NCBI GenBank assembly: GCA_964036045.1
Contig: OZ038378.1
Coordinates: 102,734,001 to 102,798,000 of the forward strand
DNA length: 64,000 nt
Direction: 5' to 3'
Origin: Eutreptiella sp. 'Long Island Sound 2002'
Taxonomy: Eukaryota; Protista; Euglenida
Position 1 is the first letter of the stretch. The number at the start of each line of letters is the position of its first letter. The position numbers and the translations under genes were made by a program. Below the pieces are notes generated by a model, which worked only from the letters and a program-made list of their open reading frames with translations, was not told the DNA's origin and ran no database searches. This document shows, piece after piece, positions 3,530 to 43,069 of this stretch.

Positions 3530-4310
3530 TCTCGGGGGCCCAAAACTGGGCGAAAATGCTACATAACCCCTGCATTCTCGGGGGTCCCCAACAAACGGGA
3601 CAAAATCTCATTTGGCTGTCTGACGCGTGCCTTCTACATGGCCCACAAGTGTGCGGAAATGATATGTGACTGCTGTGTTCTCAGGGGTGCCCAATGTTGG
3701 GAACAAGGTCAGAAGTGGCTTGCTAATCCCTGCCTTCTCGGGCCCACAAGTGGGCGGAAATGCTCGATGACCCCTGCATTCTTGGGGGTCCTCAACAAAG
3801 GGAACAAAAATCAGAATTATTTGTGCCACCCCTCCCTTCTCGGGGGCGCATACATGGGCGGAATTGCTACATAACCCGTGCATTCTCGGGGGTCCCCACT
3901 TAAGGGGACAAAATGGGAATTGGCTTCCTCACCTTTGGCTTCTCGGCGGGCCACAATTGGGCGAAAATGCTACAAAAACCTTGCATTCACCGGGGTCGCC
4001 AACAAAGGGGACGAAATCAGAATGAGCTGCCTCACCTTATAGAGGGCCCACAAATGGGTGGAAACGGTACGTAACCGCTGCATTCTCTGGGGTCCCCAAA
4101 CAATAGGAACGTGATCAGCATTGTCTGCTTGACCCCTTTCTTCTCAAGGGCCCACAAGTGGGCAGAAATGTTGCATAACTCCTGCAGCCTCGCAGGTCCC
4201 CAACGAAGGGCTCAAAATCAGAATTGCTCGCCTTATCCTTGCCTTCTAGGGGGCCTAGAAGCGGGCAGAAATGCTAGATGACCCCTTCATTCTCGGGTTC
4301 CCCAACAAAA
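3530..4310. repeat. Degenerate ~102-bp tandem repeat, about 8 units, related to the 85-bp satellite in opposite orientation
   Basis: The motif gcccacaagtgggc(g)gaaat or a variant recurs near 3540, 3640, 3743, 3846, 3950, 4046, 4150 and 4253. It shares cccacaagtgggc, acccctgc and aaaatcagaa with the reverse complement of the 58.4-64 kb monomer. Confidence 0.85.
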
Positions 4311-4699
4311 GGGAACAAACCCAAAGCGTACAAAGGCAAAAATAAACAAAAGAACACGTTTCCTTTGAGGGCCCAACCCAGATTGGGAGCTTGCATATTA
4401 TCAATACTGGGGATGGAACCCATAATCTTTTAGCCGCAATAGCACTAGTTTACCCACTAGGGTATCGGCCATCTGTAACAAATGTTTGCACACGGATGGT
4501 ATTGATACTTGATCAATTACAATTTTCGGCAGAGTTGTGTTGAATACTGTGACTATTGTGAGTATACATACATGGGGTGAAAACCCATTTTCTCATCCTC
4601 TACGACATCAAGCAATTTTTCTTGCGTTTGCCTTTGGCGCCTTTGGTCCGGCACTTGCCCACCAACCTCCGAGAACGAGGGGGGGGGGTTCGGCTAAAG

Positions 4700-14599: not shown

Positions 14600-14618
14600 A
14601 AACTGATCATTTGTGTGT
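14600..14618. repeat. Left target-site duplication of the large LINE
   Basis: aaactgatcatttgtgtgt matches aaactgaacatttgtgtgt at 29793-29811 at 18 of 19 positions and sits immediately next to the T13 tail. Confidence 0.9.
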
Positions 14619-14619
14619 C

Positions 14620-14632
14620 TTTTTTTTTTTTT
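14620..14632 (-). other. Poly(A) tail of the large LINE
   Basis: T13 run on the plus strand between the TSD and a ~145-bp 3' UTR that follows the ORF2 stop at 14777. Confidence 0.85.
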
Positions 14633-14776: not shown

Positions 14777-17700
14777 TCATGTCATTGGTATTTTCCACTC
14801 GTTTGGGTCCCAGTGCGTTTTGTGGCGTTTTGGTAGTGGCTGCATCGGGACTTCCCACAAGGTTGGGTCCAAATGTTCTGGTGGCCGTTTCTGTATGAGG
14901 TATATCGTCTGTGGTGCTCGTCGGGTTGTTTGCCAGTATTGTGTCGTCTTATGTTTGCAGGCGTCATGGTAGCACTGTGTCATGTTTGCCAAGTGTTTCT
15001 GCTGGCACCACATGTAGAGTGCCTGTCGTAGGTGAAGGTCCAGCAGCTTCTCAGCGCCAGCGCACAGCCTCCAGTATCGTCCGCGGATCAACAGCAGCAT
15101 TTTTGCATCTGCATACCACATCGCTGCATCGTACTTTGCTTGTTCATACCACTGCCTGCGTATTTGGCACAGGTGTGTGTGTGTGTCCTGCAGTCGTTGT
15201 GCTGTCATCTGGTCTTTGATCACTTTTGTGACGAAGATGTGATAGTCCGTTTTGGCCCTTAGTGTGTTGGTGTAGTGCGTGTGCAGGGTGCGTAGGTGTT
15301 GCCGTGCCACCACAGCGGCGTGTGCCCTGTGGAATATGTAGTGTGTTTGCTGTGCGTGTTCTTGTGCCAACCTGCCTGCTGTCGTTTTGTACTATTCCCA
15401 TCGCTGTGCGTCAACGCTGAGACGATGACGTTTCTGGGTGGGTTCGTCTTGTGCTGTGTTAGTTGCTCGTATTCTTGTGAACCATGCCACTGCCTCATCG
15501 TCGTTTGCGCCGCGCGCATCACGTATCCATTGCTCGGGGTCGATGGGTTCCGCCGTCGCGACCTCGGTCCTACGTTTGCGTTCTGTGCCGCTCCGCATGG
15601 GCGCCCCGACGTGGTTTCGTAGGTTTTGCGGCGTTCCTCGCGGTGGAAACGCCTGAGCAACGTACTTGGTTAGCCATAGGGGCGACGGTGGCTGGTGAGG
15701 TGTAGGGTCTGCGTATTTCCGTCTTAGCGTTTGGACAGAGTGAATCATGCGAAACTGAAATAGGCCCACCTCCGTCCGAAGTTTATGCCGTTCTGTGGTG
15801 GGTATGGGGGTGATGAGAGACAGTGGTACGAGCAGCCTGGCACAGAGCCAGAGTTCTTGGCTGTTGGCCGTTTGCTGCCATTGGTACGTGTGTTGGGCCC
15901 AATCAGTCCAGCTCGTGCGCCATAGGTCCCAGAAATCGCCCCAGGCGGGACAGTAAGCCAGCCTCGACTGCACTCCTGCTCCGTGTTGTTGGCCACACTG
16001 GGAGCAGAGGGTGGGTGTTCGTTCCCAAGGGGCACCTACTCCCCACCACCTTACCTGCCCCCACAGCCATGGTGTCCACGCGTTTCGTCTGAAGTGTTTC
16101 ATGGGGAGCCAGCTCACCCAGTGTACCTCTGGTGTTTGTTTTTGTCTACACACTTGCATAATCCATGCCTTGGCAGGTGTGGGCATGATTTCTCCGATGA
16201 TGACAATATCATGGGGTTGTGGTTGTTGGGAGTCCATGGGCAGGTTGTCGCCCATATTTGCAAGGACATCGGAGTCTTTGTTCCCCTGTATGTCCTGGTA
16301 GTCTTTATACGTGGTGGCTTGTTCTAGGGTACGGTGTCCCGGTGCCCATTGTATCGGCAGTCGTTTCGAGGAGGTGTTGAGATAACCTATGTCGCGGTAG
16401 TCCTGGTCCTTGACCACTCCTTTGCGTTTTATAGGTGTGGCTTTCACCACACTCTGGTTGTCAAGTATGATGTCGTACCCTGGACTGGCCAGTTCAGAGG
16501 CCAAAGCGCAAAGGATTGTCTCGGCCCGATACACTTGCTGAGGCCCGTGCACCCGGAAAGCCGCGCGGTAGGTCCCGTTGTATATACCCCCTCCCGCTCG
16601 TCCGTGTCGTTTCGACCCGTCTGTATACCACCACGTGGTGGTCGGTTCTCCCGTGTAGTGTACGGTGATCCCGTGGATCTTTTGCTCGTGGGGTAGCGGC
16701 TGACAAACCTCGTGGGTTTCCTGAAGGGTTGGTTCGTCTGGCGGGCTCATCCAGCCGTAGTCCAGACGGTTGGTCGCCGGCTGTGTCTTCCCTGCGTGTG
16801 TCTCTTGATCCTCCTCCGAGCTCTCCGAATTGTATAGTTCCGCCGACAGGGGTCGATGTTGCCTGGGTTGGGATATACGCTGACCCACCGTGCCCCCTAG
16901 GGCTCGGACAGCGTCAATGTATTTATATTGGGTTGCGGTGAGCTGTTGTGTAGGGCCGTTATTCTGCAGTTCTTGCTGCTCTATTGTGACCCACCGGGTG
17001 ATGTAGGACCGCCATAAATGGCGGAGGCCAAGTTCCCCGTGGCTGAGGTTGGTAGTCAGCCGGTGTTCGTTCATTTGTTGTTCTATCCCGGGTGTGTCCC
17101 TGATGTACTGTAGTAGTATGTCGTCCCAATGTGCCATCCGTGTCCTATTCCCGAGGAAAAGCCCTCTGTAAGTCCATCGGGGGATGAGGACGGCATTTGT
17201 GATGCCTACCTTTTCGTAAGCGTCTAGCGGTAAGGTCCTGTATTCCGCTACGTCGTGGTTCAGTTGCGTGGTGACCATGTCCCATGCTGTGTCTTCTTGT
17301 GTGGGGTGGGCGAGCACGTGCCGTAGGTACGTCATTATGGGTGGCCGCAGGGGGATGAGCTGGTGCTGCCAAGTGATGGGTGTTAGGTTGTAGTCCTTAG
17401 TCCGTGGTACACTTCAGTTTTGTCCTTATTGAAGCCTAGCTGCATTGTGTAGGCCACGTCGTGGAGTGTATCTAAGGTGTGAAGTAGTGCTTCCTCCGTG
17501 GGTGCACGCACAGCAATGTCATCAACAAACACGTATAGTTAGCCTCCCGGGCACCGCTCTTTGGTTTCGCGTAGGAGTATGTCGTAGTATAAGAGAAATA
17601 GTGTCGGGGAGAGGGGGCACACCTCCTTCATACCCCTGGTGGGACGTATTGGGAGGTCCCTTCCGTGGAGGGTCAATACGGCCGGTGTGTGTTGGTATAT

Positions 17701-19936
17701 TTCCCCCAGCAGTCGGATGATGTTTTGTGATGCCCCTGCCTTCTTGACGATCCCAGTCACCATGGGTCCAGGGACCGATGGGAATGCTTTGGCCACATCG
17801 AGTAGGGCCACGTACCCGTCTTGTGTATGTAAATCGTTTAGTAGTTTCGTGCCTAGGGTCGTGGTGTTTCGGCCCTGTGTGGCGCCGTGTTGTATGTCTA
17901 GTAGTCCCGGGGTCATGGCCCTAGATATACGCGTCACGAGGAGCCGCGTGAGTATGCTATACATGGCCGTGGATACGTAGATCGGCCTCTAGTTTCTTGG
18001 GTCCTGGGGATCTTTGTTTTTATATATGAGCACCACCCTGGACTGCAGCCAAGCCACTGGGATGTTTTGTCCGTTAAAGACAGCTATGATTGCCTGGTAT
18101 AGTTGTTGCTGTATGTGGTCAGGTAGGTGCCGGAGCAGGTGCGGAGGAACACCATCAGGTCTAGCTGATTTATTCTTTGGTGCCCGTAGGCACAGTAGGT
18201 ACTCCTCGTATGTTGGGGTTGTGGTGTTCCATGTGTTGTGCCGTACATGTTTCCGTATTAGTCGTCGGCACGCGTCCTCGTCGTATGTAGGGTCGCCCGC
18301 AAAGTGGTTGAGGACGTACTGTGTCCCTCCTATCGGAGGTTGTGGCGTGTCTTGGGCTATGAGTCCGGTGCGCCATCTTTTGACCATTTTATAGAAGTAG
18401 CCTGAGTTGTGCACAGCTGCCTGGCGCAGTTTGCTGATTTGTCTCCGTATGTGTTGCTCTTGTGCCTCCCCGTATTCGCGTAACCGTGCCTTGGGGTCCG
18501 TGGTTTCCGACCAGGTTGCGGTGGGCGATGTCTTGGTGCGTGTAGGTTGTCGTGGTCGCGCCGCGTGTGCTATCGCCGATAGGATGCGCCGTGCTATGTG
18601 TAGGGGTGGGTCGGTGTTCTTTACGGGTAATGTTGATATGGAGTTGGTAAACCGTTGGAAGTGTGTGGTATACGACTTCGTGACAGTGGGCTGCGGTTTC
18701 CTGCGTGGTGGGTCGGGGGCCCCTATCCTCCAGCGGATTCCAAGTAGGACCAGAGTATGGTCCGATATGGGCATTTGTATGGTGTCGTAGTATGTCCAGG
18801 GTATGTTGGGTATTTGTTGCTTGATCAATATGGCGTCCAGGCGACGTGGTCGTCCATGCCTAGGTGTGCGGGTGTAGTACTGTCGGGGTTCGGGTGGCTG
18901 GCTACTCGCGTGTAATGGGTCGAGGAACACGCCGTTGCAAAGGTCTTCCCGCCACGGGCGTGTCGGGTTCGATGACCAAATGTCATCGTTGTAATCCCCC
19001 ATTACAATGTCATAAGGTTGGAGGGACTGCACGAATAGGTCTACCTCTTGCTTGTGCTTGCGGTTGAATTTGGAGTACACACACACTATGGTTCGGCGGG
19101 GGCTATTGGGGAGTTGAAGCCTGATGGCCCCTGCTAAACCGTTTGGTGAGTATAACGTTTCAAGTATGTGAGGGACCACAACGTGGCGGACGATGAATGC
19201 TACCCGTTGTTCGGTCCCAGGCGCAGCGTAGCACTTGTAGTTGTTGTTGAGCGATGTTGTGGCTGCATCCGGTTTAGGGAAACACGGGTCATATTCCTGC
19301 ATGCTGTAGAGGTCGATACAGCACTAACTGATCAGGTGGAGGGCACTGGCCCAGCACTGAAGGGTGACAGAGCCTTGTGCTCCTTGTATCTTCGAGGTGG
19401 CCAGTTTCATGTCGTGGTCCTTTGGTCGTGTCATCTAGGCTGTCGTACCGTCGATTTGTGTTGACCACCAAGTGTTGTGCATATTCCTCTATGGCGAGCA
19501 GCGGAACAGGGGGTCCCGGCACGTCCCGGCACCCGCGCCGGAGCCGGTATATTCTGCGGTGTCCGGGGTTGGGGTGGACATCTCCGCATTGGAGGACCCG
19601 GTTGTTCTTGTACTGTGTGTTGTGAGGGCTGCTCACCGTAGTGATGGACACAGGTGTGCGGTAGTAGCGGCTCGGCACCCCCTTGTCAGGGGCGGTCGGG
19701 GTGTGGAAAAAGCAGGCGATATAGAGGAGGAACAGGCCGGGCCGCCACATTTGGTAGCCGTGGGGGGTTGGGCCCGGTGAGTAGTCGTGCCGGTGCCGTA
19801 CCGGCGGGGTGTATCGCCTGCGTACTCTCCGATTTACAGGGAGCAGGTATACTCGTCCCTCTGTATGTGTAGTGGGCGCCAAGAGTAGGAGGAGGGCCGT
19901 AATGGCGATGCAGGGCATGAGTAACAGGCACCTCAC
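14777..19936 (-). pseudogene. LINE ORF2: hydrophobic leader, 2A, AP endonuclease, reverse transcriptase, RNase H, zinc knuckle, C-terminal extension
   Basis: APE: MKLAT..IQG (from 19410), MQEY, MGDYND, RRLDAIL, ISDH. RT: PDGVP, N*RPI, LLDVAKAFPSV, RGMKEVCPLSPTLF, FVDD (17518-17529). RNase H: YTDGS (16613-16627), YRAE, LDNQ, QWAPGH, GNKDSDVLA. CSQCGQQH...C at about 15950-16010. In-frame stops at 19328, 17989, 17539 and 15392, plus two frameshifts. Confidence 0.95.
19559..19594 (-). other. 2A/StopGo-like motif 5 (LQCGDVHPNPGH), upstream of APE
   Basis: Translation of ORF 19289-19936. The final His codon CAC is one substitution from Pro CCC. A 2A upstream of APE is the position known from L1Tc and animal CR1/L2/RTE elements. 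Confidence 0.75.
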
Positions 19937-20559
19937 TTTTTCCCTTTGCCCTGCGGGTTTTTTGACGGCCCCTTCCCTTTCCCTTTGTGTTTGGTGTCGG
20001 CGGTGAAGGCAGCCATGCCGTCTGGCTGCTGGTTGGATTGTGGTGATGTAGGTGTTGCCCTCTTCGTTTTGGGTGGCGGTGTGGTGTTTGTGGGGGTTTT
20101 TTGTGGTGTTTTGTTGTGGGCTTTGGTTTTCTGTGCCTGGTGTGGCAGTCGTGCGTGTGCTGTTGTGGGTTTGGCTGGTTTGTCTGGTTGTTGGTCGTGG
20201 GGTCCATCCGTGTCCATGGTGGCCAAGTGTGGGTGGAGATCCGTTGGTGTGACGTCGTCGTTGGTATGGCCGAGTTCGGTCAGGATGGCCTCATTCCACT
20301 CTGCCACGTTGATGGGTTCAGGCTGTGCGAGCAGCTGTTTCCCCCTGTTGATTTCTTTGATGACGCGTTCAGTCATCATGTCTGCACCTAGTTGTTTTCC
20401 TGCCTTCATTCGTCTGCGAAAGGCCGCGTCGTCACCCGTCTCCTGTGGCATTTTGTGTGAGAGCATCTGGTCGATGCGCTCCGTTGCTTGTGTGTCCGTG
20501 TTATTCCCCTAGCGTTATGTGGACGTATTCACCGGGTGCTACTCCGATTTATTGTCTGG

Positions 20560-20740
20560 CGCTGAGGGCAGGTACCGTGGCATGTTTGTATTGGAGCGAG
20601 GCGTAGGTGCAGCCTGCCTCGCTCCACATGTAGGGTTCTGGTTTCCAACTGCTCCAACATCCAAAGAAGGATGCCACAAGTGTCGCCGTGTTGTCTCCTG
20701 CGCCCTGCGTCCACCCTACGAACACCGTTGTGGCGTCGTT
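20560..20740 (-). other. Possible RRM-like domain in the C-terminal ORF1 product
   Basis: TVFVGWTQGAGDNTATLVASFFG...GCTYASLQY resembles RNP2/RNP1 spacing. RRMs are common in LINE ORF1 proteins. Confidence 0.35.
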
Positions 20741-22556
20741 TCTGGTCGGTTTTGGTGGCCGCTTGATGTCCCTGGAGCGGCTTGTGGACTGTGTCCAGTT
20801 GTTGCGGTTGAGTATGACATTGGTCATTACGTGAACCAGTTCGTAGCTTTTCATGCCCTTCAGTAGTTGGGCAATCAAGCGTCGGTCAGCGTCAGGGTGG
20901 AATTGTATCAGGAGACGGTATGAGTCTACCGGCCGGAAACCCTTAAGGAAGGATGCGATGCTCCTTCCCAGCTCTAGCTGTTCCCTGTCTATGTCGTCAA
21001 GGATTTCCTGTACTGACGTTATTTTGTCTTCTTTATGTTGTGTGTATTGTTCTCTCAGGTTGTACAGGCTGTCGTAGTCAGTTTCAGTGAGCCAGTAGGG
21101 TCCAGGGTTGCCGGCGTTTTCCTCCTTCTGTTTTATGGTTTGTAGTGCTTGCGTTAGACGAGGCAGCAGTTGCATGGGCAGGTGCAGTATCCAGGCATGT
21201 GACCGACTTTGCCCTGCGATGTGTTCTGAGGCGCACTTCCACTGAAAGGTGTTGCGTGGGTCCTTGCTTGCTATGGTGGATGCGACGTCAGGCTGGTGGC
21301 CGTTGATTCGTTTCATAAATGCGTCTCGCGTCCTAATGCCAGTTTCCGGTGGGCACTCCACTACGACTGTAGTTTTGGCATGTTCTGGTTGTAGTGTGGC
21401 TGTGTGGTTCTCCAGTCCCACTTGTATAGGTGTGCCCTTCGTGAGTGCGTATGTTTTGTGTGTGGGTTCGTGTCCCATCTTTATGGTGTTGTCCAGGTGG
21501 GGGACCATGATGGGCTTGCGCTGTAGGTGGTGGACTAAGGTATCGTGTTCTGGGGACCACTTGCGTACTGGGAATTTGTCGAATTTGGTATACTCCCCTG
21601 ACTTAGCGGGCTAGCTTCCGTAGTGGAGCGCGGTGGAGGCAATCCATTCGGTACGTTTGCAGTGCTGTGGTATCTTGTCGGTCCGCCTCATATGCCAGGA
21701 TCAGTTCCTTGGCCCCTGGGTCGCCGAGTGCCCGTAGGATTTGGTCGACTCGTTCGTCCTCACTTCCGCCCCATTCCGTTTGTATGGCTGCGCGTTGCAT
21801 CCGTCGGTCATGGTTGCGGCGGGTCCCGGTTGCCTGTGGTAGTAGTAGGTATGTTTTGTTCCGGGTGTCTTGGTTCCCTTGATGGTCGGCTTCTGTATGG
21901 ACTGTGTACCATTGCGCCTCGGCCATCTCCGATGCTGTGTGTATACCGCGGGAGTCTGCCTCATGCATCACCGTCATGACGTCGCGCAGTTTGTGTTGCG
22001 CAAACAGGGGGAGTTGGTAGGTGTTCCTGTCATACCATACCCCTTCTTGTGTCTGCCGCCTTATGTGTTTTGTGGTCACCGCACGGTTGGGGTGCTTTGT
22101 TAAGTACGCGTTCAGGCTGGTTTGTGCGCCGCACACGACTGAAGTTTTCAGTGTGTCTTGTTCTGCTGTTGTCATTGGCTGTTGCGGCGTGCCTGTATTG
22201 AGTTTCACTAGTTCTTCTATGAGCTGGTATTCCGTTGGTGTGTGTATGGGTAGTTTGTCTAGGGGGTTATTGCCGTCTTCGTGGAATGTGTATGCCTGTG
22301 CATCCTCCTGGGGAGGAAGGGGGGAGTAGCTAAACCCGTCTGCGTGATGGTCGGGTGGTGTGCTAGATTCCCCGTTCTGGGGGGATTCCCGTGCCGTGCT
22401 ATCCTCTAATGGGGGGTGTGGGTTTGTATCGAGGGTGTCCGGGGGGTTTTCCTCTGCGTCCCCTTGGTCGTGTGCGTCAGTATGTAGTCCGGATGTATTT
22501 CTTTCATAGTTTTTCGCCAGGGTGCGCACCATGCCATGGGGTGGGGCGTTGTTGTC

Positions 22557-22606
22557 TGGGCCTGGGTTCGGTTCCACATCGCCATTTGTGTGGCATGTGG
22601 GACCCA
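22557..22606 (-). other. 2A/StopGo motif 4 (WVPHATQ-[frameshift]-NGDVEPNPGP)
   Basis: Perfect GDVEPNPGP at 22557-22583. The upstream WVPHATQ is in the adjacent frame, so a one-base deletion lies inside the motif. Confidence 0.85.
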
Positions 22607-23047
22607 TTGTATGTGTTGTGGGTAGGCGTCATCCGTGGTGGCGTGTGGAGCCATATTGTGGCGCATATCTGGTGGGTGGTCACCTAGTACCCAGCCGGTG
22701 ATGTCGTACTCCAGGAGTAGGTCGTCTTGCCAGGGTTGGGCCACAAAGAGCCAGTACCGTATGGATATGGCCATTTGGAACTCATCTCTCGTGTCCGTAA
22801 GGCCATGCAGTTTGTGTCTTGCGATATGGCAGTAGGGTAGGGCAGTTCTGAGGTGTACCTCCCACAGCTAGCCTGTTGTGCTGGTAAGCCGTCTCCATAC
22901 GTTGTATGCCAGCTGCGATGGCGGTTTGAGAGTTGCACTATAGTCCGTGTACGTGAGCAGTCGGTTGTTGTAGATTTGTATGTGGAAATACGCATATGTT
23001 GGGTCATCCGGGGGTGGGGGGGGTACCCTTGGTTGCAGCGTGCTGCG

Positions 23048-23158
23048 GCACAGTGGGCATCTCAGCAGCCTTGGGTCGTTGGCGCAGGCCCGGCACAGCC
23101 TGTGCCTGGGGTCACAACTTAGGTTTGTACCCGCGGGGCTGTCCAAGCATATGGGGCA
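23048..23158 (-). other. RING-type zinc finger in ORF1
   Basis: CPICLDSPAGTNLSCDPRHRLCRACANDPRLLRCPLC shows C3HC4-like ligand spacing. Confidence 0.8.
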
Positions 23159-23332
23159 GTCCTCTGGGACGTGCTCACTGTCGTCCGCGTTCCCTGCTTT
23201 TTTGGGTACGTTGTCGTCGGGCTGTTGGGGGAGTGGTGTCCCCTGTAGGGGCGGCGACAGGGCGCTGTGGACCTCTATCTCCATGTCCCCTGGTGATGTG
23301 GTTTGCGTTGCTCGTTCTAATGTGGGTGCGGC

Positions 23333-23383
23333 TGGTCCCGGGTTGGGCTCCGTGTCTCTGTCCCGAGTCGGGTCGTGGACCCA
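23333..23383 (-). other. 2A/StopGo-like motif 3 (WVHDPTRDRDTEPNPGP)
   Basis: In frame with, and upstream of, the RING-containing ORF 22868-23284. Confidence 0.75.
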
Positions 23384-23791
23384 GTTCGTTGGTCTTGGGT
23401 AGGGGCGGGTGCGTAGATGTTGTGTTCTGCGGATCTTTCCCTGCGGTGTGTCATCCGCGGCATGTTCTGTGATGTCTTCATTTGTCCGCTTTGGGCGTAG
23501 GTTTTATCGAGTTGCGGGCGGGTGTTGCTCATCCTTGTGGGCTGTGCTCATGTGTCGTTTGGGTGCAGGTTGGTCCGAAGGCGCGACTTCCGCTTTTCGT
23601 TCGTGGTTGTTGAACGCGTGTGTTGTCGGTCGGTGCTCCTGGTATGCCGTGTGTAAGTTGTCTGTGCGTCTCCGTTTTTGGTCAGGTGGTGAGTTGTCCG
23701 TGGTGCGTTTGCGCAGCATCACGGGCGTTTGGTACGTGAGCGGGATGTCTTGGTTGTAACGTGTGCGTTTTGCAGAGGGGGCTAATGGGTT

Positions 23792-23842
23792 GTGGACGGG
23801 GTTGGGTTCAACATCTCCGTCGCTAGTGACGTCATGTATCCA
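23792..23842 (-). other. 2A/StopGo-like motif 2 (WIHDVTSDGDVEPNPVH)
   Basis: Within ORF 23504-24709. The terminal GP has decayed to VH by one substitution in each codon (GTC, CAC). Confidence 0.75.
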
Positions 23843-24478
23843 CCCGTTTGGGGTGTCTACCGTGGTCGGTTGTGGGCACGTCGTATGCGGTTTTGGCGTC
23901 GGGCAGGTATGTGTGGTGGTTGCAGGGACGGCCCCTTGCCAGGATCCTTGTTGTGGGTACAGGGTGTCTGGGGACATTACGGCATAGAGGCGTCGTGGTA
24001 CCAAGTCTGGGGTTTCCGGTTGGTGTATGGCGAAATACTTGCACGTGGTGCAGCGGAAGTAGACAAAGTCGGCCATGTTGCATCGGGGGCACACTACATC
24101 AATGGCTGTGGTCATGTTTAGTTCTAACGGTGAGTTGTGTTTTTGTGTTTTCCCGGTAGGCTCGCGTGTGTCCGGGGGGATTGGGCGCGGTGTGCCTCGG
24201 GCATGTGTCCTGTGTATCGGGGTGACTTTTGGTGATGGTACCTCTGAAGTGCCATGTGTAGACGCCGATTCCGTGCGTGGTGTGGGTGTGTTGTGTTCTA
24301 GGGGGGGGGTGGATGCCCGTCGATTGCTTTTGACTGCCTCCGTGAGCGCCTGGGTAGCGTATTTGTATAGTTTAACGGGGTAGTGGGGGTTGGAGGCCGT
24401 TTCGATTTCACTCGCCAGCCGTGTGACCATCTCTCTGTGGTGGGGAGGGATGTCGTTCTCCGTGGCCTGTGCGTCGAC

Positions 24479-24529
24479 GGGGCCCGGGTTTTTTTCGATG
24501 TTTGCATCGGTAGTGTGGTCCCGCACCGA
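24479..24529 (-). other. 2A/StopGo-like motif 1 (SVRDHTTDANIEKNPGP)
   Basis: Within ORF 23504-24709. S (TCG), A (GCA) and N (AAC) are each one substitution from W, G and D. Confidence 0.75.
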
Positions 24530-24741
24530 TCTAGTTTGGGCGGGATGGATTCGTTGTTTGTTGGGGTGTGTCCGCCGGGATGGTGGGTCATAGAGCAGTC
24601 CCCTTCCCATGGGGGGGAGGTGCTGTCCCGGGGAGGAGAGGAGCTCTGCCTGATGGTGAAGATAACACACGAGCAAATATGGAACACAACTTGCGCGTAC
24701 GCTGGTCACTGTCGCCGTCCCAGGCTTGGTGGCCTGTCAAG

Positions 24742-25400
24742 TCCGTTGCCCGCCTGTCTGGACCTGTGCTGTCTGGGCCTGCGCTGTCTGCGGCAGACGA
24801 TGGGCCGTCGGGTCGTCCGTGCGTGCCGTTGATTGCCGGGTTGAGGCCATATATAATGTTCCTGTCTTGCTGTCCTGTGCTGCCTGTCGCTGGCCAGCAA
24901 ACCGGGCATCACCGCGGGCGACAAATGCGTCCACACCAGTGTACCCAGCGGTGTAACCAGTGGCAGGGTAGGCGCTAGCCAAGGGCCTAGCCGAGTCGGC
25001 GCCAGCGGCACCAGTTACTCGCATGTATGATTGAAGGGCAGGCATGTCAGTACGGCCGGCCGCCTGTTCCGTCCGTTGCCTGTATGTCTGGACCTGTGCT
25101 GTCTGGGCCTGCGCCGTCTGCGGCGGACGATGGGCCGTCGGGTCGTCCGTGCGTGCTGTTGATGGCCGGGTTGGGGCCATATATGATGTTTCTGTCTGGC
25201 TGTCCTGTGCTGCCTGTCGTTGGCCAGCAAACTGAGCATCACCGCGGGCGACGGATGTGCCCACACCAGTGTACCCAGCGGTGTGACCAGTGGCAGGGTA
25301 GGCGGTGGCCAAGGGCCCAGCCGAGTGGGTGCCAGCGGCACCAGTCTTTCGCATGCATGATTGAAGGGCAGGCATGTCCTTACGGCCGACTGGCCACTGT
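24742..25400. repeat. 330-bp in-frame tandem duplication (110 aa) within ORF1
   Basis: gtctggacctgtgctgtctgggcctgcg at 24756 and 25086. The TARTDDPTAHR.PQTAQAQTAQVQT unit is repeated in ORF 24737-25723. Confidence 0.9.
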
Positions 25401-25598
25401 GCTGTCGGGTCGTCCGTGCGTGGGTTGACGCGGTCGTCCGCTCCAGGTTCATGCCCGTATCGGCTGCTCACTGTGGAGAAGGATGCAAGGCAGGTGTTGG
25501 ATGGGTCCGCAAGTTCCCCTGTTGTCCCCTTCATCCACATGCATGGGCATACCAGCACGTCAAGGGACGCGGAATCCCGCTGGTCGGCGGGAGTAATG

Positions 25599-26883
25599 CA
25601 GGGGGGGGGGAAAAATGCGATTCGCATTTTTTCGCATTTTCCGCATTTTTTTTCGCATTTTCTGGGCAGGTCCCTTAGTGTAATGTTCAAGAGGATACAT
25701 TCAAGTGGCATTGTGTAGTTCAACTAAAGGGTAGTTTTGTAGTCAAGTCAGTGTTTGCATACCTTCCCAACACCGCCACTTTTGTTTGTTACATGGCTCC
25801 TTTTCCCTTAGACATGTCACATGCTATGCCCTCCCATTGCCCTCCTTCTGAGCCCACATCTGATGATGGAAATACGGTCTTTGCCTTCGCCGGTGCCGGA
25901 AATTGTTTGATGTGATGGAGGAGATGCTCAATGCGTTGAAGAATCGCTTCGAGAAGGAGGCTGAACAACTTGAGTTCTTCCGGCAGCTGCGTGTGCTCAA
26001 CCCACGCAACCTCAGTGACATGGATACAAACTTGTCCTCCTACAAGTCGCTGAAGCTGGATGAAGTTCCTGGCGTCCAAGAGGAGTGGAATTTGTACCGC
26101 AGAACGGAGTTCCGGAACATCAACAACGGTGATGAACTTCTTGCATGGTGGGAGAGTCGGCCAGACTCCCTTTTCAAGGAGGCGGTGTTGTTCTTGATCA
26201 CCATCCCTACCAGCAGTGGGGCAGTGGAGAGGTTCTTCTCGCAAGCTGGCAACGTCTCCAAGAAGCAAAACAAGTTGTTGAATCAGATGAGGCGATTGGC
26301 TTTTATGGCGCGCTTCAACTTGGATGTCGAAGGGCGCCTTGTATAGTGTAGCTTCCGACAGCCGCCAACGTATACCTACGGGCGGTTAAGCTATCCAACT
26401 AGGGGCGAATAGTCGGGGGCAACGAACCGCGAAACGCATCGATACGCCAAGCTCACTGGACTGGGCACCCTGTGGGCTTGGGAAGGCTTCCGGCAGCCGC
26501 CATTGTATTCTTACGGGCGGTTAAGCTATCCATTGAGGGGCGAATAGCCGGTTGCTTCAATGGGGTATGGGGCGGAGGCAGTATTGGGGCTCTGCTGCTT
26601 CTTGCCGAGGGTGTAACGCCCCTCCTCCTAAACCACAGTAGAAGGGTGAGACTTGCCTACCACGCTTTGCATGTTGAGCCGGGGCCGTAGTCTTCACATT
26701 GATGGAGCGATGGTGTCAACAGATCAACATGCGTCTTGATAAACATAGGGGTTTTGGGAGTCCTATAGCATTGTAGCAAAACCGCATTTTATGCCGCATT
26801 TTTTCTCGCATTTTCCGCATTTTTTCCGCATTTTTCCGCATTTTTTTCCAATCCCGGCGACCGCATTTCCCCCCCCCCCCCTG
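25599..26883 (+). mobile_element. 1285-bp internally deleted hAT DNA transposon nested in LINE ORF1
   Basis: Termini CAG(G)n-AAAAATGCG and CGCATTT-(C)n-CTG. Flanking duplication AGTAATG at 25592-25598 and 26884-26890. Arrays of cgcatttt subterminal repeats at both ends. Carries a hAT dimerisation domain. Confidence 0.92.
25903..26346 (+). pseudogene. hAT transposase C-terminal dimerisation domain (truncated)
   Basis: EEWNLYR...LLAWWESR...LFLITIPTSSGAVERFFSQAG is the canonical hAT dimerisation signature. Confidence 0.92.
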
Positions 26884-28099
26884 AGTAATGGAGGGGATGT
26901 TGGGGATGACCGTCCCCAATTCCCCTTTGTGGGTCCTGGGTCGGCGCCTCCTCCATCGCTGCTGTCGGGGGCGTGCCTGTTGTCCTTGCTGTCCGGCCAC
27001 CAGGTCCCAGCCTCCAGCGAACGGGAAAACCCCAGCGTGTCCCCAGCCGGACGGTTCCGGTCCCTGTTCCGGTGCCTGTTCCTCGTCAACTCCGTGATGT
27101 GGTGCCCTTTCCCCATGGGTTTTGGGGGGGTCCGGGCTGGTGCACAGGGGGTTGGGTGTCTGGTGCGTCCGTTGTGTAGTACACTTGTTGGTGCTGCTGT
27201 GGGTGTCCCATTTCCGGTGCCGGTTGGAAGGACGGGTAGCCACCCTGGTCCATTGGTTGGTGACGGGGGGCGTGCGGGTGATCCGCCAGTGGTCGTGTTC
27301 GATCCCTCGAGAGCCAGGTGGACAGGTAGCCCAATGCCGGTTCTGCGTGTGTGCGTCGGTGCTTCGGTGCGTCGGTGCGGAGGACCTCTAGCGCGGCGGC
27401 GTTTTGTTCGCTGAACTGTGCCCAAGTCCCTAGCTTGTCCTCTTCCACTATGTGCTGGCCATGCCTGTCTACGACTGCCCGATACTGCATGTGTGGTTCA
27501 TATTGCGTCTGCAGTAGGTAGGGTGCTTCACTATGGTAATGTGCCGGCTGTGCCGTTGTCTGTTTTATGTGTGTGGCCGCGTGCAGTGGAGGGGGCTGAC
27601 GGTTCACGTCCCTGTGTCCGTGTTGGAGGGCAGGGACCGCACAGGGTACTTCCGGGCTGGGGGGGTTGCGGTAGAACCGCAGCGGTTCTGCCACAGGGGT
27701 CGGGGGTTGGGGGGCCGGGGCTTGAGGTTGATGTCAGGGTTCATGCAGGAGGACCTGCCGTTCACCTTGGCGTGTGTCGATGTTCACGCAATAGCGTCTG
27801 CGTGCCTGTGGCGGTTCAGGCTCGCCTTTTGGCGGCTCCGTCTGGTTGCGGATTCGGTCACCGTGTCTGTCCGTGCTGATGCGCTGTGGTGCCGAGGCTT
27901 CGGGGGTCACGGTTTGCAGTGGTTGCTGGATGGACCGGCAGATTCCTGCTACAGAGTCCGCAAGGGACGTCATGGCCCACAGGGCCTGGGTGAGTTCGCC
28001 CTTGGAGCTGTGCTTCCGAGACTTTTTCCGGCGGCTGTAACTGTCACTGTCACTGTCGCTGGTGCTGTCGCTGTCTGCGTCCCTACGTGACCGTCTACC

Positions 28100-28330
28100 T
28101 CCTCCCTTCAGACCCACCAGTCGCAACGTCATGTGGATGGGTCCGTGTGCGGTTGCGGTCGGGGTCGGGTCGTTGTCTCCGAGCGGTTGTCCTTGGTAGA
28201 ACAGTCGCTGGTGATGTGGTGGGGGTAGGTGTGGTGTGAGGTGATGGAGGGCATGTTTGATGCCCATGACTGACCTGGTTGCCGGGAGGCAAACCGGGGG
28301 TCCGGCGTCGCTCACGATCACCGACCTAGA
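28100..28330 (-). other. Ubiquitin-like domain ending in LKGG within ORF1
   Basis: TRSVMGIKHALHHL...PPPHHQRLFYQGQPLGDND...PIHMTLRLVGLKGG parallels ubiquitin TIENVKAKI...PPDQQRLIFAGKQLEDG...TLHLVLRLRGG. Confidence 0.6.
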
Positions 28331-29765
28331 GTGCCACGCAGGGTGGGGTTGGGAGGGGGGGATGGATTGATGCGAGAACGCCGTGTTTCGGCAAATCCTA
28401 TTTCGCGAGCGTTGCGGTATATGCAATGGCAGCGTTGTTATGTTCAACACAGGGTGTATGACCAGTTGTTGGTGTGAGTCCTTCGTGGAGTCGTACATGG
28501 CGTTTACGGTGTGGTCTGGGCAATGGCGCGGACGGGGAGCAGGGCTCCTCACCGTGGGTGTAGGCGTTGTTGGCGGGGAGCATTGCTTTGCTCTGCCGTT
28601 GGCCGTTCCATGGTGTGTCACTGTGTTTTGGCATGTTGTCAAGTTGGTGGTGTTGGCTGGCGGGGAGCAGGGCTCCACTCCGCCGTCTCCGTTGTGTTGC
28701 AGGAGCACGATGATTTTTATCATCAATCCTAAGGTGCACAGAGGTCGTGGCCTCCATGGGGTTCCGTTGGGTCTCACGGCGGTTTGCGAAGGGCGGGGAG
28801 CCAGGCTCCGCACCGCCGTCATGTTGTTCTTCGTCATGTTAGGTGTGTCCGGTTGTTGGTTGTCGTTGTCATGACGGGGAGCTGTGCTCCGCACGGCCGT
28901 TTGGGGCGTGTTTGGGCGGGGGACAAACCTGGCTCGGGGCGTTGCGTCTTCCGGGAGTCGGTTACATCCCATCCAGCCACGCTCTGGTCTCAGGCCATCC
29001 GAACGGCGAGCGTCTGCAGCATGATACGAAGCACTTACACAGGTGTCCTTGATTAGTGGGTCGGAGTAGTTGGATTCGATGACCGGTGGAGCAGCCTCAG
29101 AATTCTTCAGGACAGTGTTGTACATCAGCAACTGAGCGGCCTGCTTGGGGTTCATGGACTCAGCGTTGACAGAAGTCCTTGGGGCCTTTTGGTACCGTTG
29201 GTCATCCTCACTGTGTCCCCATATGTCGTGGTGTTCCGAGTCATAATAATTCCCCATAACCCCGTAGTCCCCGGGGTACTCGTCAGGTGCTTTCTCATTT
29301 TCTTCCGTTGTCTCAGTTATGTCTATCACCTCGCCGGCGTCCCCAGCGTTGCGCAGGGAGGAAGTACCGGGGGCATACTTGATATCCTGGCTGGTGGCCG
29401 TCTCCATAATTGCTTGTCCTTTTTCGGCATGGTCAATCTCTGTCCTCGGGACGTCCGACTTGTCGATGAACTCGTCCGTCACTTGGCCAAAGGTGGTGTT
29501 GATCTCAGGAGTGTCGCTGCCAGTTGCACAAGAGGAAGGACTGGCTGGGCCCGGCCCGTACCCTCCGTAATAGTGGGCAATACTTGGGTTGTGATTGTCC
29601 TCGGCGGGGGATGATCTCCGGACGATGCTGGCTCCCACGTTGCTCGTGTTGACGTTGACTTCGTGATCGGATAAGAACGCCTGCCGTAACAAGGCTAGGA
29701 GCAAGGCAAAGCATCTTACATCACGGTGCCCCATGCTGGGCTTTCCGTGGTCCATTTGTAGGTAC

Positions 29766-29792
29766 TGAAAAAAAATAGACACTCAGAAAGTG
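29766..29792 (-). other. Euglenid spliced-leader (SL) exon relic marking the LINE 5' end
   Basis: The minus strand reads (C)ACTTTCTGAGTGTCTATTTTTTTTCA, which matches the Euglena SL as I recall it (ACTTTCTGAGTGTCTATTTTTTTTCG) at 25 of 26 positions. It directly abuts the right TSD. Confidence 0.9.
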
Positions 29793-29811
29793 AAACTGAA
29801 CATTTGTGTGT
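29793..29811. repeat. Right target-site duplication of the large LINE
   Basis: aaactgaacatttgtgtgt followed by a T-run, matching 14600-14618. Confidence 0.9.
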
Positions 29812-36999: not shown

Positions 37000-39900
37000 C
37001 GTCAACGTGGGAGGACAGCAAGCCGCTTGTCGCCGGGACGGGGCACTACGTGCCCACCAAGGGCATGACACTGGAAGGGCAGAAGACCATTATCATGGTT
37101 GCCATTCACGCAGCGACAACTCGCCTCTAGGGCAGGGACCGGGTGTCCTTTGGGGAGCCGATGATGGCGTGGAGCAGGGAGAACCCCGTTGAAGAAGAAG
37201 CGGCGCCGGAAGAAGAACGCTTGGACCCAGATGCAGCGCGGAGGCTTTTTCCCGCAACCCAAGGCTCCCAGCCACGGAGAGTCGTAGCCTGGGCGCCGGA
37301 CGGCACCAGACAGCCCAGGGCAGCCCCGCCGAAGCCTCGCGCACAGGTGAGGCCTCAATGCAAGATATCTGAGGAGAGCCTAGAAGCCGGCGCAGAGGTC
37401 CGAGAACAAGCGTGCCAGAAGATCCTGCGGGAGCCTATGCAGAGCTACGCATGGCATCAGAGCCGGGGGAGGAGTGGATTGACGTCCTGCTCCGCGACGA
37501 GGAGCCGCTGCTGGCCATCAAAGCAGCCTTGCAAAGCCCTGCCCCAGGGCGAACGGCAGGCGCGCCCCATAGCTTTCAAGACGCGGTCGACATCACCCCC
37601 AGGCGAGTGAAGACCGAGGACATCAACCGGTACCCTGAGCTTGCGTTCGGGAACACCTTCCAGCCCCTACCGGAACCAACCGACGGCAAAGTCCGTCCGC
37701 AGTGTACACAGAAGACGGCCGATGCGATGTGCAAGGGGGTGCCCATCCGAGGAGAGGAGATCAGTGCGCACATGAAGAAGAAGCGAGACGCCGACGGCAA
37801 CGACAAAGGAGAGCCGAGCGACGATGAGGAGCGCGGGTAAAAGAGACACGGAGGCCGAAAGAGTGCCGACAAGGACGTTGAGAGCGGCAAGGCCAAGAAT
37901 TAGTTCGTATGCTGCTACGGATGCGGAGGCGACCACGGGTCTACAGCCTGCCGAGCCGCGGTCCCCGTCGGCTAGAAAGAGCGGTGTAGCCACTATGCCA
38001 AGAAGGGCCCCATCGCGAAAGTGTGCACGGAGGTAGCGGCGGCACGGGCTGCCTTCCTACTACGGCAAGCCGTGGGAGTTCGAGTCGAACCCGCTGCAAG
38101 ACGTCGAAGGGCAGCGGGACCGAGACCCCAGCCCGGAGAAGCGAGGAGCGGGTGACCGCGACCGCGACTACGGTTGCGACCGCCGACACAGAGAACACGG
38201 CACGGAGAAGACACATTCCGCAAGAAAGCGATCACGCGGCCGCGCTAGAAGCGGGTGCCGAGACCGAAGCGGAGACAGGAGCCGCCACAAGAGCAGGGAC
38301 AAGCGCAGGGACCCGAGCAGAGACAACCGCAAGCAACGCAGCAGGAGCCGCAGCCGCCAAAAGAGCCGCGACCCGAAGAAGTCGAGGGTATGAGACAAAA
38401 GACACAGCTGCAGCAGGAGCGACAGCCGAAACCGCCGGTCCGCGATAGGGGACAAGTAAGCGTGGAGGGGCTACGAGCCCTAGAGGATTCCCCCCGCACA
38501 TGGCCAGCAATGGCAAGGGCTTCCACCGCCGCCCCAAGACTGGCATCGGCTGACTAGAGGAGAGGCGTGGATGCTCCGGCTGCAGCAGGTGCATCCAAGA
38601 GGCCCGCCGCCTACGTGGAGCTTGATGAAGGGGTGGTAGTCGCAGGGGCTGCCGGGGCCAACGACGCCGATGTCCTGGAGCCCGTTGAGGAGGGTGCCGC
38701 CGCGGTATGAAGATGTGGTGTGACAACACCCCCGAGTGCACCTAACGAGCCCAAGATTGAATGTAATTCGCAGGCAAGCACGGGGTCCCAGTGTGGCGAC
38801 CCCCGGAGCCGACCAAGCATGGCTGTACCCCTAAGGGTCCGGCCAGAGTGGGCTCGATATGCCCCTAGTCAGGAGTGAGGAGTCAGGCCCGTGGGGCCCA
38901 AAGGCCCTGCCAGGTGGTGCGGAGATTGGCCTCAACCTTAGGGGGCCGGTGACCCCCATCAAGGCGGGCCTCAGGTGAATAGTATATCGCGCAGCGGTGT
39001 GGGTCATTCCCGAGGGTGGGCACGCCCAGAGCAGCATCATGGGGACGGGCCAACGGGCCTCGGCCACGGCTTCAATAAATGGTGAATCCTGCCATTGGCC
39101 GGGACCGAGTGACTTGGACAGCGAACACACCGAGCCAGCAATTGTTGATGCCGATGCAGTAGTGCGTGCCAAGGAAGTGCAGAAGCCAGAGGTAGGGCCC
39201 GACCACAAGCGAGGGCGACAAGAACACGGGAGAGCGTAGCCCGCAAGCCACGGACAGTCGGCAGCTCAAAAGACAGCCAGAAGCAATGGTGGCCTCCCTA
39301 GGGGCGACCCCGCGGGTGCCACCACAACGTGCGCGAGAGGCGGCAAGGGCGCCCGTGGAACACCCGAGGGGCGCGGACACGGGAGCACGCGCCGAGGCGC
39401 GCGTTCGGGTATGAGCCGCAGAGGCGGCACCGAAAAAAGCCGCCGCGGAAAGGAAGCCGGGGAGGCGAAGCGCCGCGGGAGTAGGGCAGGGCACAGAAGC
39501 GTCCGCTTCAGCGCAATGACCAGGGCGACAGAGTGGGGAGCGCGACCCGAGCGCACTGGTGTCAACCCCGAGACAGCAAGAAATCAGAAACAAGGGGCGT
39601 AGCACAAAGCACGGGCGGCGGCGATGGCGGAGAGGCGGATACTGATGAGAGAAGGGCATGATGCAGCGGGGGAATGCAGGGCAAAACACGAGAAAAAAAA
39701 ATGACAAGGGCAAGTGACGGTGGCGGGAAAAGGGTGCACAAGGCGGTCGTGGACTGTGCAGAAGCTAAAAGCGGGGGGCACCACCACAACCACCTCATCC
39801 ACCACCACCACCACGTCCTCGTCCAGCACTCCACCCCCCAAGCTGCGGGGGAAACCTCCCAAACGGGCCTCCAAACCCGTCCCCACCGCGAGCAACCCCG

Positions 39901-42900
39901 CCGCTGCCAAGGCCCACGCCCCGACGAGGCCCGCGCCCGCAGCCCGGCTGTAACCCAAGACCGCCGCCAAGCAGCCACCCAAACCTGTCGGCGCGCCGCG
40001 ACCGCAACCCGCAGCCAAACCCAAGCCCAAGCCCAAGCCCGGCGCCACGACGGCAGCGCGAGCCCGACCGCCCGAGGACGTCCTCTACGACATTCGGCCC
40101 CAGCCATCCCAGGCCCGGAGGCAGCAGCGCCCAGCACGGCGCCCCCCCACCGTCACCGACGCCGCCGCCTCCGCCTCTTTGCGGCTTGCACCCCCCCCCG
40201 ATCGGAGGTAGTGGCCCGTAGGGACCACAATGCGAGAAGAGAGAAATAGTGGGTGACGCGGCAGTGGCGCTCAAAAAGTGAGGGGCACAGAGCAGCAACG
40301 GAGGGCGTGAGGGCGCGTGAATGGACCGAGACTTAGACCGACCTAGACTTCCCGATGGAGGCGTGGCTCAAGGCAGTCCAGTCGCGAGAGCCACGAGGCT
40401 CAGGCAAGTCAGGCATGCTAACGGCGGCAATTAAACAGCTCACGGCGCTGTCCCTATGGACCCTGAGAGAGGCAGTGAGCAAGACAGGGGCTCTAGGGTA
40501 TATTGAGCCCATACTCAGGTTTGTACTACATGTGCCCATCCGCAAGCGCCCGGTGCCACGGATAGAAGAAGACACGCGGCCCATAGCAATGGAGCAAGAA
40601 ATAGCAAAGCTGGTGGCGATCATGATCATAGCCCAGACGGAGCAGTACGGTAGCGACAGGTAGTGGGCGTACCAGAGAGGGAGGCCGATGGGGATGTGGC
40701 CCGCATGCTAACAATGCTGCTCAACCACACACGAGAGCAGGGTAGCAGCGCGGTTCTGTACAAGCGGGACCGCAGCAACGCGCACGGCACCGTGGACTTG
40801 GTGGGAATGGCGCACCTCTTGCAGGAGGCGGGGGTGGACCTGCCCGAAGCGCGTTGGTGTCTCTGTTACGTCCAGTGGGTGCAGATATACTCAGTGACAG
40901 CAGCAGGCACCACCAGAGCCTGGCGGGTCCGAGTTGGAGCTTTCTGGGGTCGCCCCCGGGGCCGAGGGTATACTTGTACCAAGAAGTACAATACATGGAG
41001 GCCGGCATACACCGGCATCCTGAGTGTGTGGAACGACGGAGTGGAGCTAGCATTCGATAGAGAGCGGTACTTGGGTGACGCAATAGTGCCGGCAGCGACT
41101 GAAGAAACGCTTGTGGCGATGCTTAGCCAGCAAGACGCGGTGGCACCAAAGTTCAAAGTACGACATATCCCGTCTAAAGAGGAGTATTTGTAGATCACGT
41201 GGAGCGGCCAGGCGCGGGCCACGAAAGCCACCCGGCACGCAAAATACGGCAAAGCCCAAAGGAGGGACAAACGCCGTGGCATCTGGGTGCTGGGCAGCCG
41301 GGTCATCAGCGAGGCAGCCAGGACAGGGCTGAGACGCCGGGTCCGGGGAGCAGTGGCACAGCGGGCGACAGCGGCCATCCACCTAGCGGCAGTCCATGAC
41401 GACGCGAGAGTGTTCACGGAACAGGTGCTGGCACAGGTGGTAGCCAGGACGCAGGGGGCACTGCCGTCAAAAAAGGACGTGTATCGACTAGCAGCCCCCA
41501 TGGGGAGAGTATGGAGGAGGAAGATCCAGGTGCATTTCAAGCTGGACTTCAGCACGCTCTGGCACATCCTGTGGCTCGCATTCCGAGTACGCCATCCACG
41601 GACAGCGATGTACAGGGCTGCAGTGCGGCAACAGCTACGTGTCATGAACACGACGCGGCGAGCGCTTTCAACGTGGTCCACAGCTCACTGGTATCAATAG
41701 GGAGCCGCAGCGGTAGAAAATGTGCCGCGGAGAGCGCTCAGAGAGATTGGCTGGGAGATAGTAGATGTGACGGCGGAGCTCCGGCAGCGAGAAGGAAGAC
41801 TGACACTACATCTCCCCCGGGACACGTGGGCCGGCACAGTCCCGGCGGCGGACGTGGCGGTATACACGGACGCGGGTGCCCGCCAGGACTCAGATGAGGA
41901 GAAAGAGTGCGGCGTGGGTCTGGTGATCCGGGTCAGCGACAAGTGGTGGTGGGCAGAAGTACCCATGGAGACGTGGGTAGATAACACCACGAGCTACTTG
42001 GTGTGGTGCTTCGGCGGTATGTTGGAGAGCGCCTTCGCGACCTAGGGGCGCGGACGATAGAGCTAACGTACGACGCACAAGCAGCAGCGGTGTTAGCAGA
42101 GAAGCCACCGGAGCAGTAGAAGCATCCCCTGCGGAGGGCGCTGCAGTGGTCGATCGGGAACACCACGGCGGCGCACTAGTGGGTGAAATCCCACTAAGAG
42201 GTATCAGCACTAACAAGCGACGTCCCGAAGATGGGCATCATCGTGGCGGACGCGCAGGCCACAGAGGCAGTCGACAAGAGTGCCAAAGGATATTGTGCCG
42301 CTGCCATTGTCGGCGACGTACGGGGCGGATCCCACGGCGCAGGGCTGAGCAGACATGGAATTGCGCATTCACGCACCGAGCAAATGGAGACCACCGGGGG
42401 CCCTCCATCCCCGAATGGAACAGCTCCTTCGTGAGTCCCCAGAGACGGGCATAGTGCTCGTGCCGCTACACCTGGGGCTGTGACACCGACGTCTAGAGGC
42501 ATGCCCTCGATGCGAAAGGCACGAAGAGGTCACGACGCGGTACCGATGCCCGTGCCACAGGGCCAAATGGAGAAGAGCGCTGCAGGCGCTGAGTCCGCCA
42601 TGGAGACTCCATATGGGGCTGACCCTGCGCATCATCAGTGGTGTCTCCCAGTCACGCACGTGTTTCGCCGAGGAAGGGGAAGGCACACACGACAGGGCAC
42701 CAGTCCCAGCAGACCATGTGCACGTGGCAGCGGCATTGCGGGTGGTGGAGTCCCGCCAGTTGGCCACCATAGTACGGTTCTTCGCCCATGATAGGTGAGC
42801 AGGTCCATGACCCAGCGAGAACGCCGGGGCGGGCGGTGCGGAGGACCAATGGTCCAGGTCGTGGCACGCGGCACGGGCAGACACAAAGACGATGCGCGGG

Positions 42901-43037
42901 GATGAGCGCGACAAATACTGACGGTACACTCCGCATTCCCATGCCTTAGGTCGGGCGTGCACAGACAGTTAGGCGCCAGAGACCACGGCCCGGGTGCTAG
43001 CCAAAACCAAAACCAAAACCAACCCCCCCCCCCCCCC
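37000..43037 (+). mobile_element. Decayed non-LTR retrotransposon (RT plus RNase H, APE not seen) with a (CCAAAA)n/poly-C tail
   Basis: RT: VPIRKR...EEDTRPIAMEQEIAKL (40355-40663), VLYKRDRSNAHGTVD, RYLGDAIV. RNase H: VYTDAG...CGVGLVI...DNT (41722-42045), WVKSH...GIIVADAQA (about 42180-42270). The tail is ccaaaaccaaaaccaaaacc followed by C15. The 5' boundary is uncertain. Confidence 0.8.
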
Positions 43038-43069
43038 GCACCCTGAAAGTGGTACTAATGGGGAAGGAG

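Follow-up and report, generated by a model that had tools for sequence, protein, structure and literature searches.

The first open reading frame (ORF1) of a retrotransposon in the window, by which we mean the whole 64,000-nucleotide stretch of Eutreptiella DNA analysed here, is one long frame with four conserved 2A-type motifs. Judged from the sequence, the Gly-Pro bond of these motifs is likely skipped during translation, which would yield up to five products (~1,330, 229, 153, 259 and 875 aa), and we put the probability of this reading at about 0.7. LINE ORF1 is usually viewed as a single RNA-packaging protein. If ORF1 is indeed split four times, a nuclear retrotransposon would be carrying accessory-protein cargo as RNA viruses do.

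The 2A array sits on the minus strand, in an APE-RT-RNase H non-LTR retrotransposon that is complete yet dead and measures 15.2 kb, or 13.9 kb without a later insertion (Table 1). The element has the features of the APE-type non-LTR class, namely APE and RT in ORF2, a poly(A) tail, a target-site duplication and no LTRs. For clade assignment the RT gave near-equal scores with R2 (47 bits) and human L1 (43-44 bits), a comparison of bit scores only. The closest full-length relative, P0201, is intact and was 30% identical over 656 columns of ORF2. Searches of metagenome_contigs with ORF1 or ORF2 queries returned no relatives, and viral_contigs contained no relative of the element. The window copy is dead through in-frame stops, frameshifts and a 1.3-kb insertion in ORF1. 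This insertion is a hAT-like DNA transposon remnant (Pfam Dimer_Tnp_hAT, E 0.0033), and the relatives P0024, P0030 and P0160 are continuous across its insertion site. The remnant has terminal repeats with G/C runs, and its ends were high-copy in the read contigs. At the 5' end of the element, a retro-copied euglenid spliced leader was found at the sole place in the window where at least 20 of the 28 letters match; the leader is identical in Eutreptiella and Euglena gracilis (PMC3621762), and the host is accordingly a euglenid. Rfam gave no score for it. Its presence at the 5' end suggests that the copied RNA was likely trans-spliced before reverse transcription, and our literature search found no account of a spliced-leader-headed LINE. 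The leader copy ends 10 bases upstream of the ORF1 ATG.

Uninterrupted relatives overlap and tile ORF1 (P0160, 29257-23957; P0112; P0171, 23350-19936). P0160 joins the N-terminal region to site 1. P0102, P0106 and P0112 each have the full set of four motifs undamaged in a single open frame, with coding sequence on both sides and spacings of 229, 153 and 259 codons, and in P0171 the stretch between site 4 and the ORF1 stop is 875 aa long. The original prediction had named the four motifs, and every one of its strings was found at its coordinates, on the minus strand. Its product lengths of 229, 153, 259 and 875 aa likewise held in the window and in intact relatives; the list of four products was incomplete, since ORF1 starts ~5 kb further upstream, giving a first product of ~1,330 aa. 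No further 2A motif was found in the first 1,330 ORF1 codons. The sequences between the motifs, described as unrelated, proved to be so: among five flanking segments the best blastp match had E 0.06, and the ten residues 3' of each site had 0-2 positions in common between sites. Three ExNPGP matches occurred in six frames of 19901-29800, compared with a mean of 0.003 and a maximum of 1 in 300 third-order Markov simulations. A profile of 29 family motif instances, which matches its own family by construction, scored sites 1-3 at 40.8, 33.3 and 27.8 bits. The split site 4 gave 14.2 and 12.1 bits for its halves, a fifth motif in ORF2 (at 19585) gave 6.0, and all else at most 4. The NPVH of site 2 is private to the window copy. 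So is the site 4 frameshift, a one-base loss, and contigs of all four sequencing runs have the extra base at 22586. Two other candidates were set aside. KEENAGNPGPYW at 21109, although conserved in relatives, does not have the D-V/I-E spacing and fell outside the best 20 profile matches; a GDxEENP look-alike at ~22463 was variable across nine relatives. Upstream of site 1, ORF1 has an in-frame 330-bp tandem duplication (24741-25388, 90%), and relatives differ in the number of such repeats.

Table 1 Features of the retrotransposon and its reading frames, in window positions
Feature	Position	Strand	Details
Target-site duplication, 5' copy (19 bp)	29793..29811	-	18/19 letters same as 14600-14618
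Retro-copied euglenid spliced leader, element 5' end	29766..29793	-	26/28 letters match leader in PMC3621762
ORF1, ~2,840 codons minus DNA-transposon insertion	19933..29755	-	ATG 29755, TGA 19935-19933; broken in this copy
Ubiquitin-like domain, product 1	28100..28330	-	ends LRLVGLKGG; weak but consistent evidence
hAT-like DNA transposon remnant in ORF1	25591..26890	.	8-bp duplication 25591-25598, 26883-26890
2A site 1	24479..24529	-	window SVRDHTTDANIEKNPGP; P0102 LLRDRTVDGDIEKNPGP; DIEKNPGP in 22/30 relatives
CxxC-x9-CxxC zinc-ribbon-like motif, 229-aa product	24041..24091	-	read in sequence; column conservation 0.91; Pfam E 0.11
2A site 2	23792..23842	-	window WIHDVTSDGDVEPNPVH; P0102 WIRDVTSDGDVEPNPGP; DVEPNPGP in 29/40 relatives
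2A site 3, non-canonical core	23333..23383	-	window WVHDPTRDRDTEPNPGP; P0102 WVHDPTQDGDTEPNPGP; DTEPNPGP in 25/30 relatives
C3HC4 RING finger, 259-aa product	23036..23164	-	zf-C3HC4_3 E 4e-4 in window, 9e-5 in P0163; below Pfam cut-off
2A site 4	22557..22606	-	window WVPHATQ / NGDVEPNPGP, two frames; P0102 WVPDATQDGDVEPNPGP; DVEPNPGP in 22/32 relatives
Ferredoxin/RRM-like domain, 875-aa product (tentative)	21077..21397	-	model pLDDT ~50-79, residues 70-160; best Z 7.2
ORF2: hydrophobic leader, 2A-like motif, APE, RT, RNase H	14777..19918	-	ATG 14 bases past ORF1 stop; broken in this copy
Fifth 2A-like motif, non-canonical (E to H, final P to H)	19559..19600	-	RVLQCGDVHPNPGH; ends 119-aa ORF2 leader
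Poly(A) tail	14620..14631	-	3' end of element
Target-site duplication, 3' copy	14600..14618	-	pairs with 29793..29811

Relatives were collected by three protein searches (31, 35 and 35 proteins) and extended by cluster look-ups to 189, nearly all ENA proteins. The family was mapped collinearly (186/189 match the minus strand), and the counts per site rest on this mapping; in the column analysis of 101 proteins, 38 of 222 HSPs were dropped at this step against cross-matching between sites. NPGP, whose lack in the family consensus had been named as grounds for rejecting the idea, was retained in 25/30, 32/40, 28/30 and 24/32 relatives at sites 1-4. The predicted D[VI]E core stood at sites 1, 2 and 4, where the canonical (D/G/C/N)(V/I)ExNPGP was present in 22/30, 30/40 and 22/32 relatives, and failed at site 3, which was canonical in 0/30 and has DTE instead. 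The DxTxDG register was seen with D, T, D and G at all four sites. The leading W of the proposed shared pattern is found at sites 2-4 only, and site 1 has V or L in the family (V 10/17). Assignment to the DLTxDG subtype was borne out in part: site 4 equals the 2A1 of Ectropis obliqua virus (EoPV) at 14/17 positions, but Leu is replaced at all four sites, the residue after the first Asp being H/R, V, P and A across them.

The signature columns D.T.DGD.E.NPGP (40 in all) were taken from the known motif after the first column tallies had been seen. Their agreement was 0.93, compared with 0.81 for residue-matched flanks, and none of 20,000 resamples was as high (101 proteins). Variants common to at least three relatives were found in 0/40 signature columns and in 129/404 matched flank columns (p 6e-7); with the 101 cluster representatives alone, the same contrast was 0/40 versus 81/395. 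Singleton changes occurred in both, at 0.054 per cell in the signature and 0.081 in the flanks. The presence of singletons and the lack of shared variants in the signature columns is what selection in active lineages, combined with decay in dead copies, would be expected to leave. The relatives are probably copies from one or few assemblies and not independent, and the p-values are therefore optimistic. Structured ORF1 domains reached conservation similar to that of the motifs. When seven relatives hand-picked for divergence, with flanks only 46-65% identical, were compared with P0102, 110/120 signature residues matched, as did 1,244/2,168 others. Between sites, identical residues were encoded by different codons in 26/48 cases. 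Read contigs came from four runs representing at most three samples and two studies. At site 2 the Gly and Pro codons had depths of 1538/1538 in X4 and 425/446 in X2, and among the variants listed two high-share ones inside this site were synonymous; at site 3 the read contigs have Gln and Gly codons. Based on conservation at the protein level, we regard the four motifs as a real, selected feature.

The sites were compared with published 2A peptides. Their register matches motif 4 of PMC12846837, the viral WV(R/K)DLTxDG-DVExNPGP, a representative of which is reported there as almost 100% active, and this match counts toward skipping. EoPV 2A1 has an activity of 0.99 according to supplements of PMC12338488, and site 2 is identical at 16/17 positions to the untested Symbiodinium class B entry WIRDVTADGDVEPNPGP. 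T2A is reported to separate efficiently in Trypanosoma cruzi, a euglenozoan (PMC10830525). In the viral block assigned to DLTxDG by its values, the Leu position is Leu in 89%, V in 1.9%, H in 0.4%, A in 0.2%, P in 0.2% and R in 0. GDTE had 0 occurrences in the Rao table and in the Li supplements, and Thr at the site 3 position was absent from the variants given in the accessible parts of PMC12846837, these supplements and this table. The activity of 2As is reported to be set by upstream context, and many LINE 2A-like motifs to be weak or inactive (PMC3708506). One screen found highly active 2As in only 43/580 retroelement contigs, most being mid-range (bioRxiv 10.64898/2026.09.24.754024), and many retroelement 2As are described as expression-reducing (bioRxiv 10.64898/2026.06.17.732966). 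Activity can survive an E-to-H change by itself, and also many changes at the last position (PMC12846837). Of the sites, 2 and 4 are the most promising for efficient skipping. Skipping at site 3 (DTE) and at the ORF2 motif (NPGH) is likely to be partial or to serve regulation and would give fused and unfused forms.

The motifs probably work by co-translational StopGo splitting of ORF1. The element RNA would be capped by spliced-leader trans-splicing and ORF1 translated from one ATG; each nascent motif would then jam the ribosome exit tunnel, the chain would be let go at NPG and translation would restart at P. The motifs might instead be mainly brakes, at each of which ribosomes stall or drop off, so that a falling product gradient limits the ORF1p core and ORF2. 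Such a role would agree with the reduction of protein abundance by 70% of the ORF1p-associated and 59% of the ORF2p-associated 2A-like peptides tested in bioRxiv 10.64898/2026.06.17.732966, and with several 2As of multi-2A picornaviruses that are reported to yield the upstream product only (PMC11512398); the non-Leu and DTE variants may also be attenuated. However, the title of the former study ties the abundance loss to Leu-rich peptides, a class to which none of these four belongs. A row of four strong terminators would moreover starve the last, most conserved product, and folded modules lie between the sites. We therefore consider brakes an unlikely main function.

Less probable still is selection at the protein level for something other than skipping, for example cleavage by a protease or binding through a short motif, with only a likeness to 2A. 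Conservation alone names no function, and the departures from the viral consensus are fixed, but ten positions fit the 2A register at four sites, and identity reaches 14/17 with an active viral 2A and 16/17 with the Symbiodinium entry. The residues 3' of the sites are not common between them, and no protease domain was found in ORF1 or ORF2 with Pfam and NCBIfam. We judge it very improbable that duplication or capture of cassettes left the motifs behind as inactive relics, or that the youth of the copies is the sole source of their apparent conservation. The copies are related, the window copy is damaged at all four sites, and a weak sixth look-alike 38 codons after site 4 is not conserved; against this, conservation holds in the diverged relatives, the signature columns are without shared variants, and read depth at 80% likeness peaks over sites 2 and 3.

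Of the predicted products, product 1 (~1,330 aa) is mostly low-complexity and has a putative ubiquitin-like domain (Pfam ubiquitin, E 0.014 in the window and 0.0068 in P0160), which among the relatives was found in P0160 only. Its PDB sequence matches were mostly ubiquitin/NEDD8, as were the top Foldseek matches of its low-confidence model (pLDDT 51; best E 0.005). At its LKGG end this domain might offer a further site of processing, one cut by a protease, and it shares the ORF with the RING finger. The 153-aa product is basic, with 29 K/R versus 16 D/E in P0112. For the 875-aa product, which has a Lys-rich C-terminal end, ACT and RRM domains tied as best structural matches of a low-confidence model. 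Pfam and NCBIfam gave no ORF1 domain above cut-off, Foldseek gave nothing at E 0.001 for either the ubiquitin-like or the 875-aa model, and ESM Atlas had no usable match for the last ORF1 product. The 875-aa product, with its modelled RRM-like fold and Lys-rich tail, is probably the RNA-binding ORF1p core, a role assigned because of its position and the layout of tick and limpet ORF1p. The upstream products, with the ubiquitin-like domain, zinc ribbon, basic 153-aa peptide and RING finger, are probably accessory modules freed from the ORF1p core. A bolder version, which we hold to be doubtful, is a virus-style accessory polyprotein in which four efficient StopGo sites (Leu-less, partly of a DTE class) and host-deubiquitinase cleavage after LKGG would release six proteins from one trans-spliced mRNA, including a RING ligase acting against host silencing or ubiquitin pathways.

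The count of four motifs was itself incomplete, as a fifth, non-canonical one ahead of the endonuclease had been missed. ORF2 matched Exo_endo_phos (E 2e-5), RVT_1 (E 2e-17) and RNase_H (E 7e-4), and an ESM Atlas search with the APE returned generic endonuclease clusters only. The fifth motif reads DVHPNPGH in 30/43 relatives and NPGP in 0/43, so it lacks the canonical core; its column conservation (0.95 versus 0.83) is as high as that of the other motifs. In P0201, LLLMAGDVHPNPGP (GDVHPNPGP) lies directly ahead of the APE, and the ORF2 leaders of the window and P0201 did not align in BLAST. Perhaps the ORF2 motif descends from an ancestral 2A of ORF2 and has since weakened. Among 148 further RT/APE relatives, HPNPGP- or ELNPGP-type motifs were present in five and an array like that of ORF1 in none, separate ORF1 proteins being outside this search. 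At the junction of the two frames (19918-19945, minus strand), ORF1 ends G AAA AAG TGA, and ORF2 lies in the -1 frame, which is open upstream. The ORF1 end is RKK instead of REK in 4/6 relatives, which would fit a slippery site of the form A AAA AAG. For the expression of ORF2, a restart of translation at its own ATG, 14 bases past the ORF1 stop, would be a simpler reading than frameshifting. Two distant RT relatives had unusual architectures: P0285 (3,489 aa) combines APE, RT and RNase H with PHD, PCIF1-like and C5 DNA methylase domains, and P0282 has two Leu-rich HPNPGP motifs within its first 230 aa.

Single 2As in LINE ORF1p and ORF2p have been published (PMC3708506; bioRxiv 10.64898/2026.06.17.732966), and hence only the array is new. 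The 2A-bearing APE-type LINEs of PMC3708506 (L1Tc, Ingi; Rex1, L2, L2A, Crack, CR1) likewise combine APE-RT with a 2A-like motif that lies in the leader of ORF2, and E-to-H variants as in the fifth motif are known from the Crack clade. As described there, those LINEs have one motif each, nearly always 40-80 aa into ORF2, and mostly lack ORF1, whereas the present element has a 2,840-codon ORF1 with four W/DxTxDG-type motifs and one more in ORF2. The 2A-like peptides of tick and limpet ORF1p (bioRxiv 10.64898/2026.06.17.732966) and of L2A-1_NVe (PMC3708506) precede the part of ORF1p that binds nucleic acid, as is probably the case here too, but the accessible text of these sources describes one peptide before a coiled coil and no array with folded modules. 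Multi-2A RNA viruses (Paavivirinae, Iflaviridae, Totiviridae) are closer in layout, with several 2As splitting one frame and up to five per genome (PMC11512398; bioRxiv 10.64898/2026.09.24.754024), a viral record to which the four sites come close. They share the DLTxDG subtype, corresponding to motif 4 of PMC12846837 and the class B-like Trp register of PMC12338488. In contrast to these viruses, the element is a nuclear retrotransposon, with Leu replaced at four sites and Thr in place of Val/Ile at one. Host entries with multiple 2As are already tabulated: the table of Rao et al. has Symbiodinium host entries (among them B72 and B19) that include the 16/17 match to site 2, and the protein A0A1Q9EWP5 has three entries, hence several motifs in one host-annotated protein. 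In the passages found, these motifs are listed with no description of an element or architecture. In our literature search, whose coverage of subscription papers was thin, no four-site (multi-2A) LINE ORF1, no 2A in Euglena elements and no 2A test in Euglena were found; recent 2A surveys did not contain 'Euglen' in the main text or 'Euglena' in the supplements searched. As natural, selected 2A variants unlike those tested so far (Leu-less, with a DTE core or an NPGH end), the motifs could be of use in mechanistic studies and as tools to express several genes in Euglena.

Elsewhere in the window, a GC-rich (~63%), A-skewed region with many short ORFs spans 37000-44000; four of these ORFs were checked and none had a Pfam match. 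Repeats include a GATGT microsatellite (2122-2392), a 103-bp array (3490-4319) and an 85-bp satellite with 65 copies at 93% (58451-64000).
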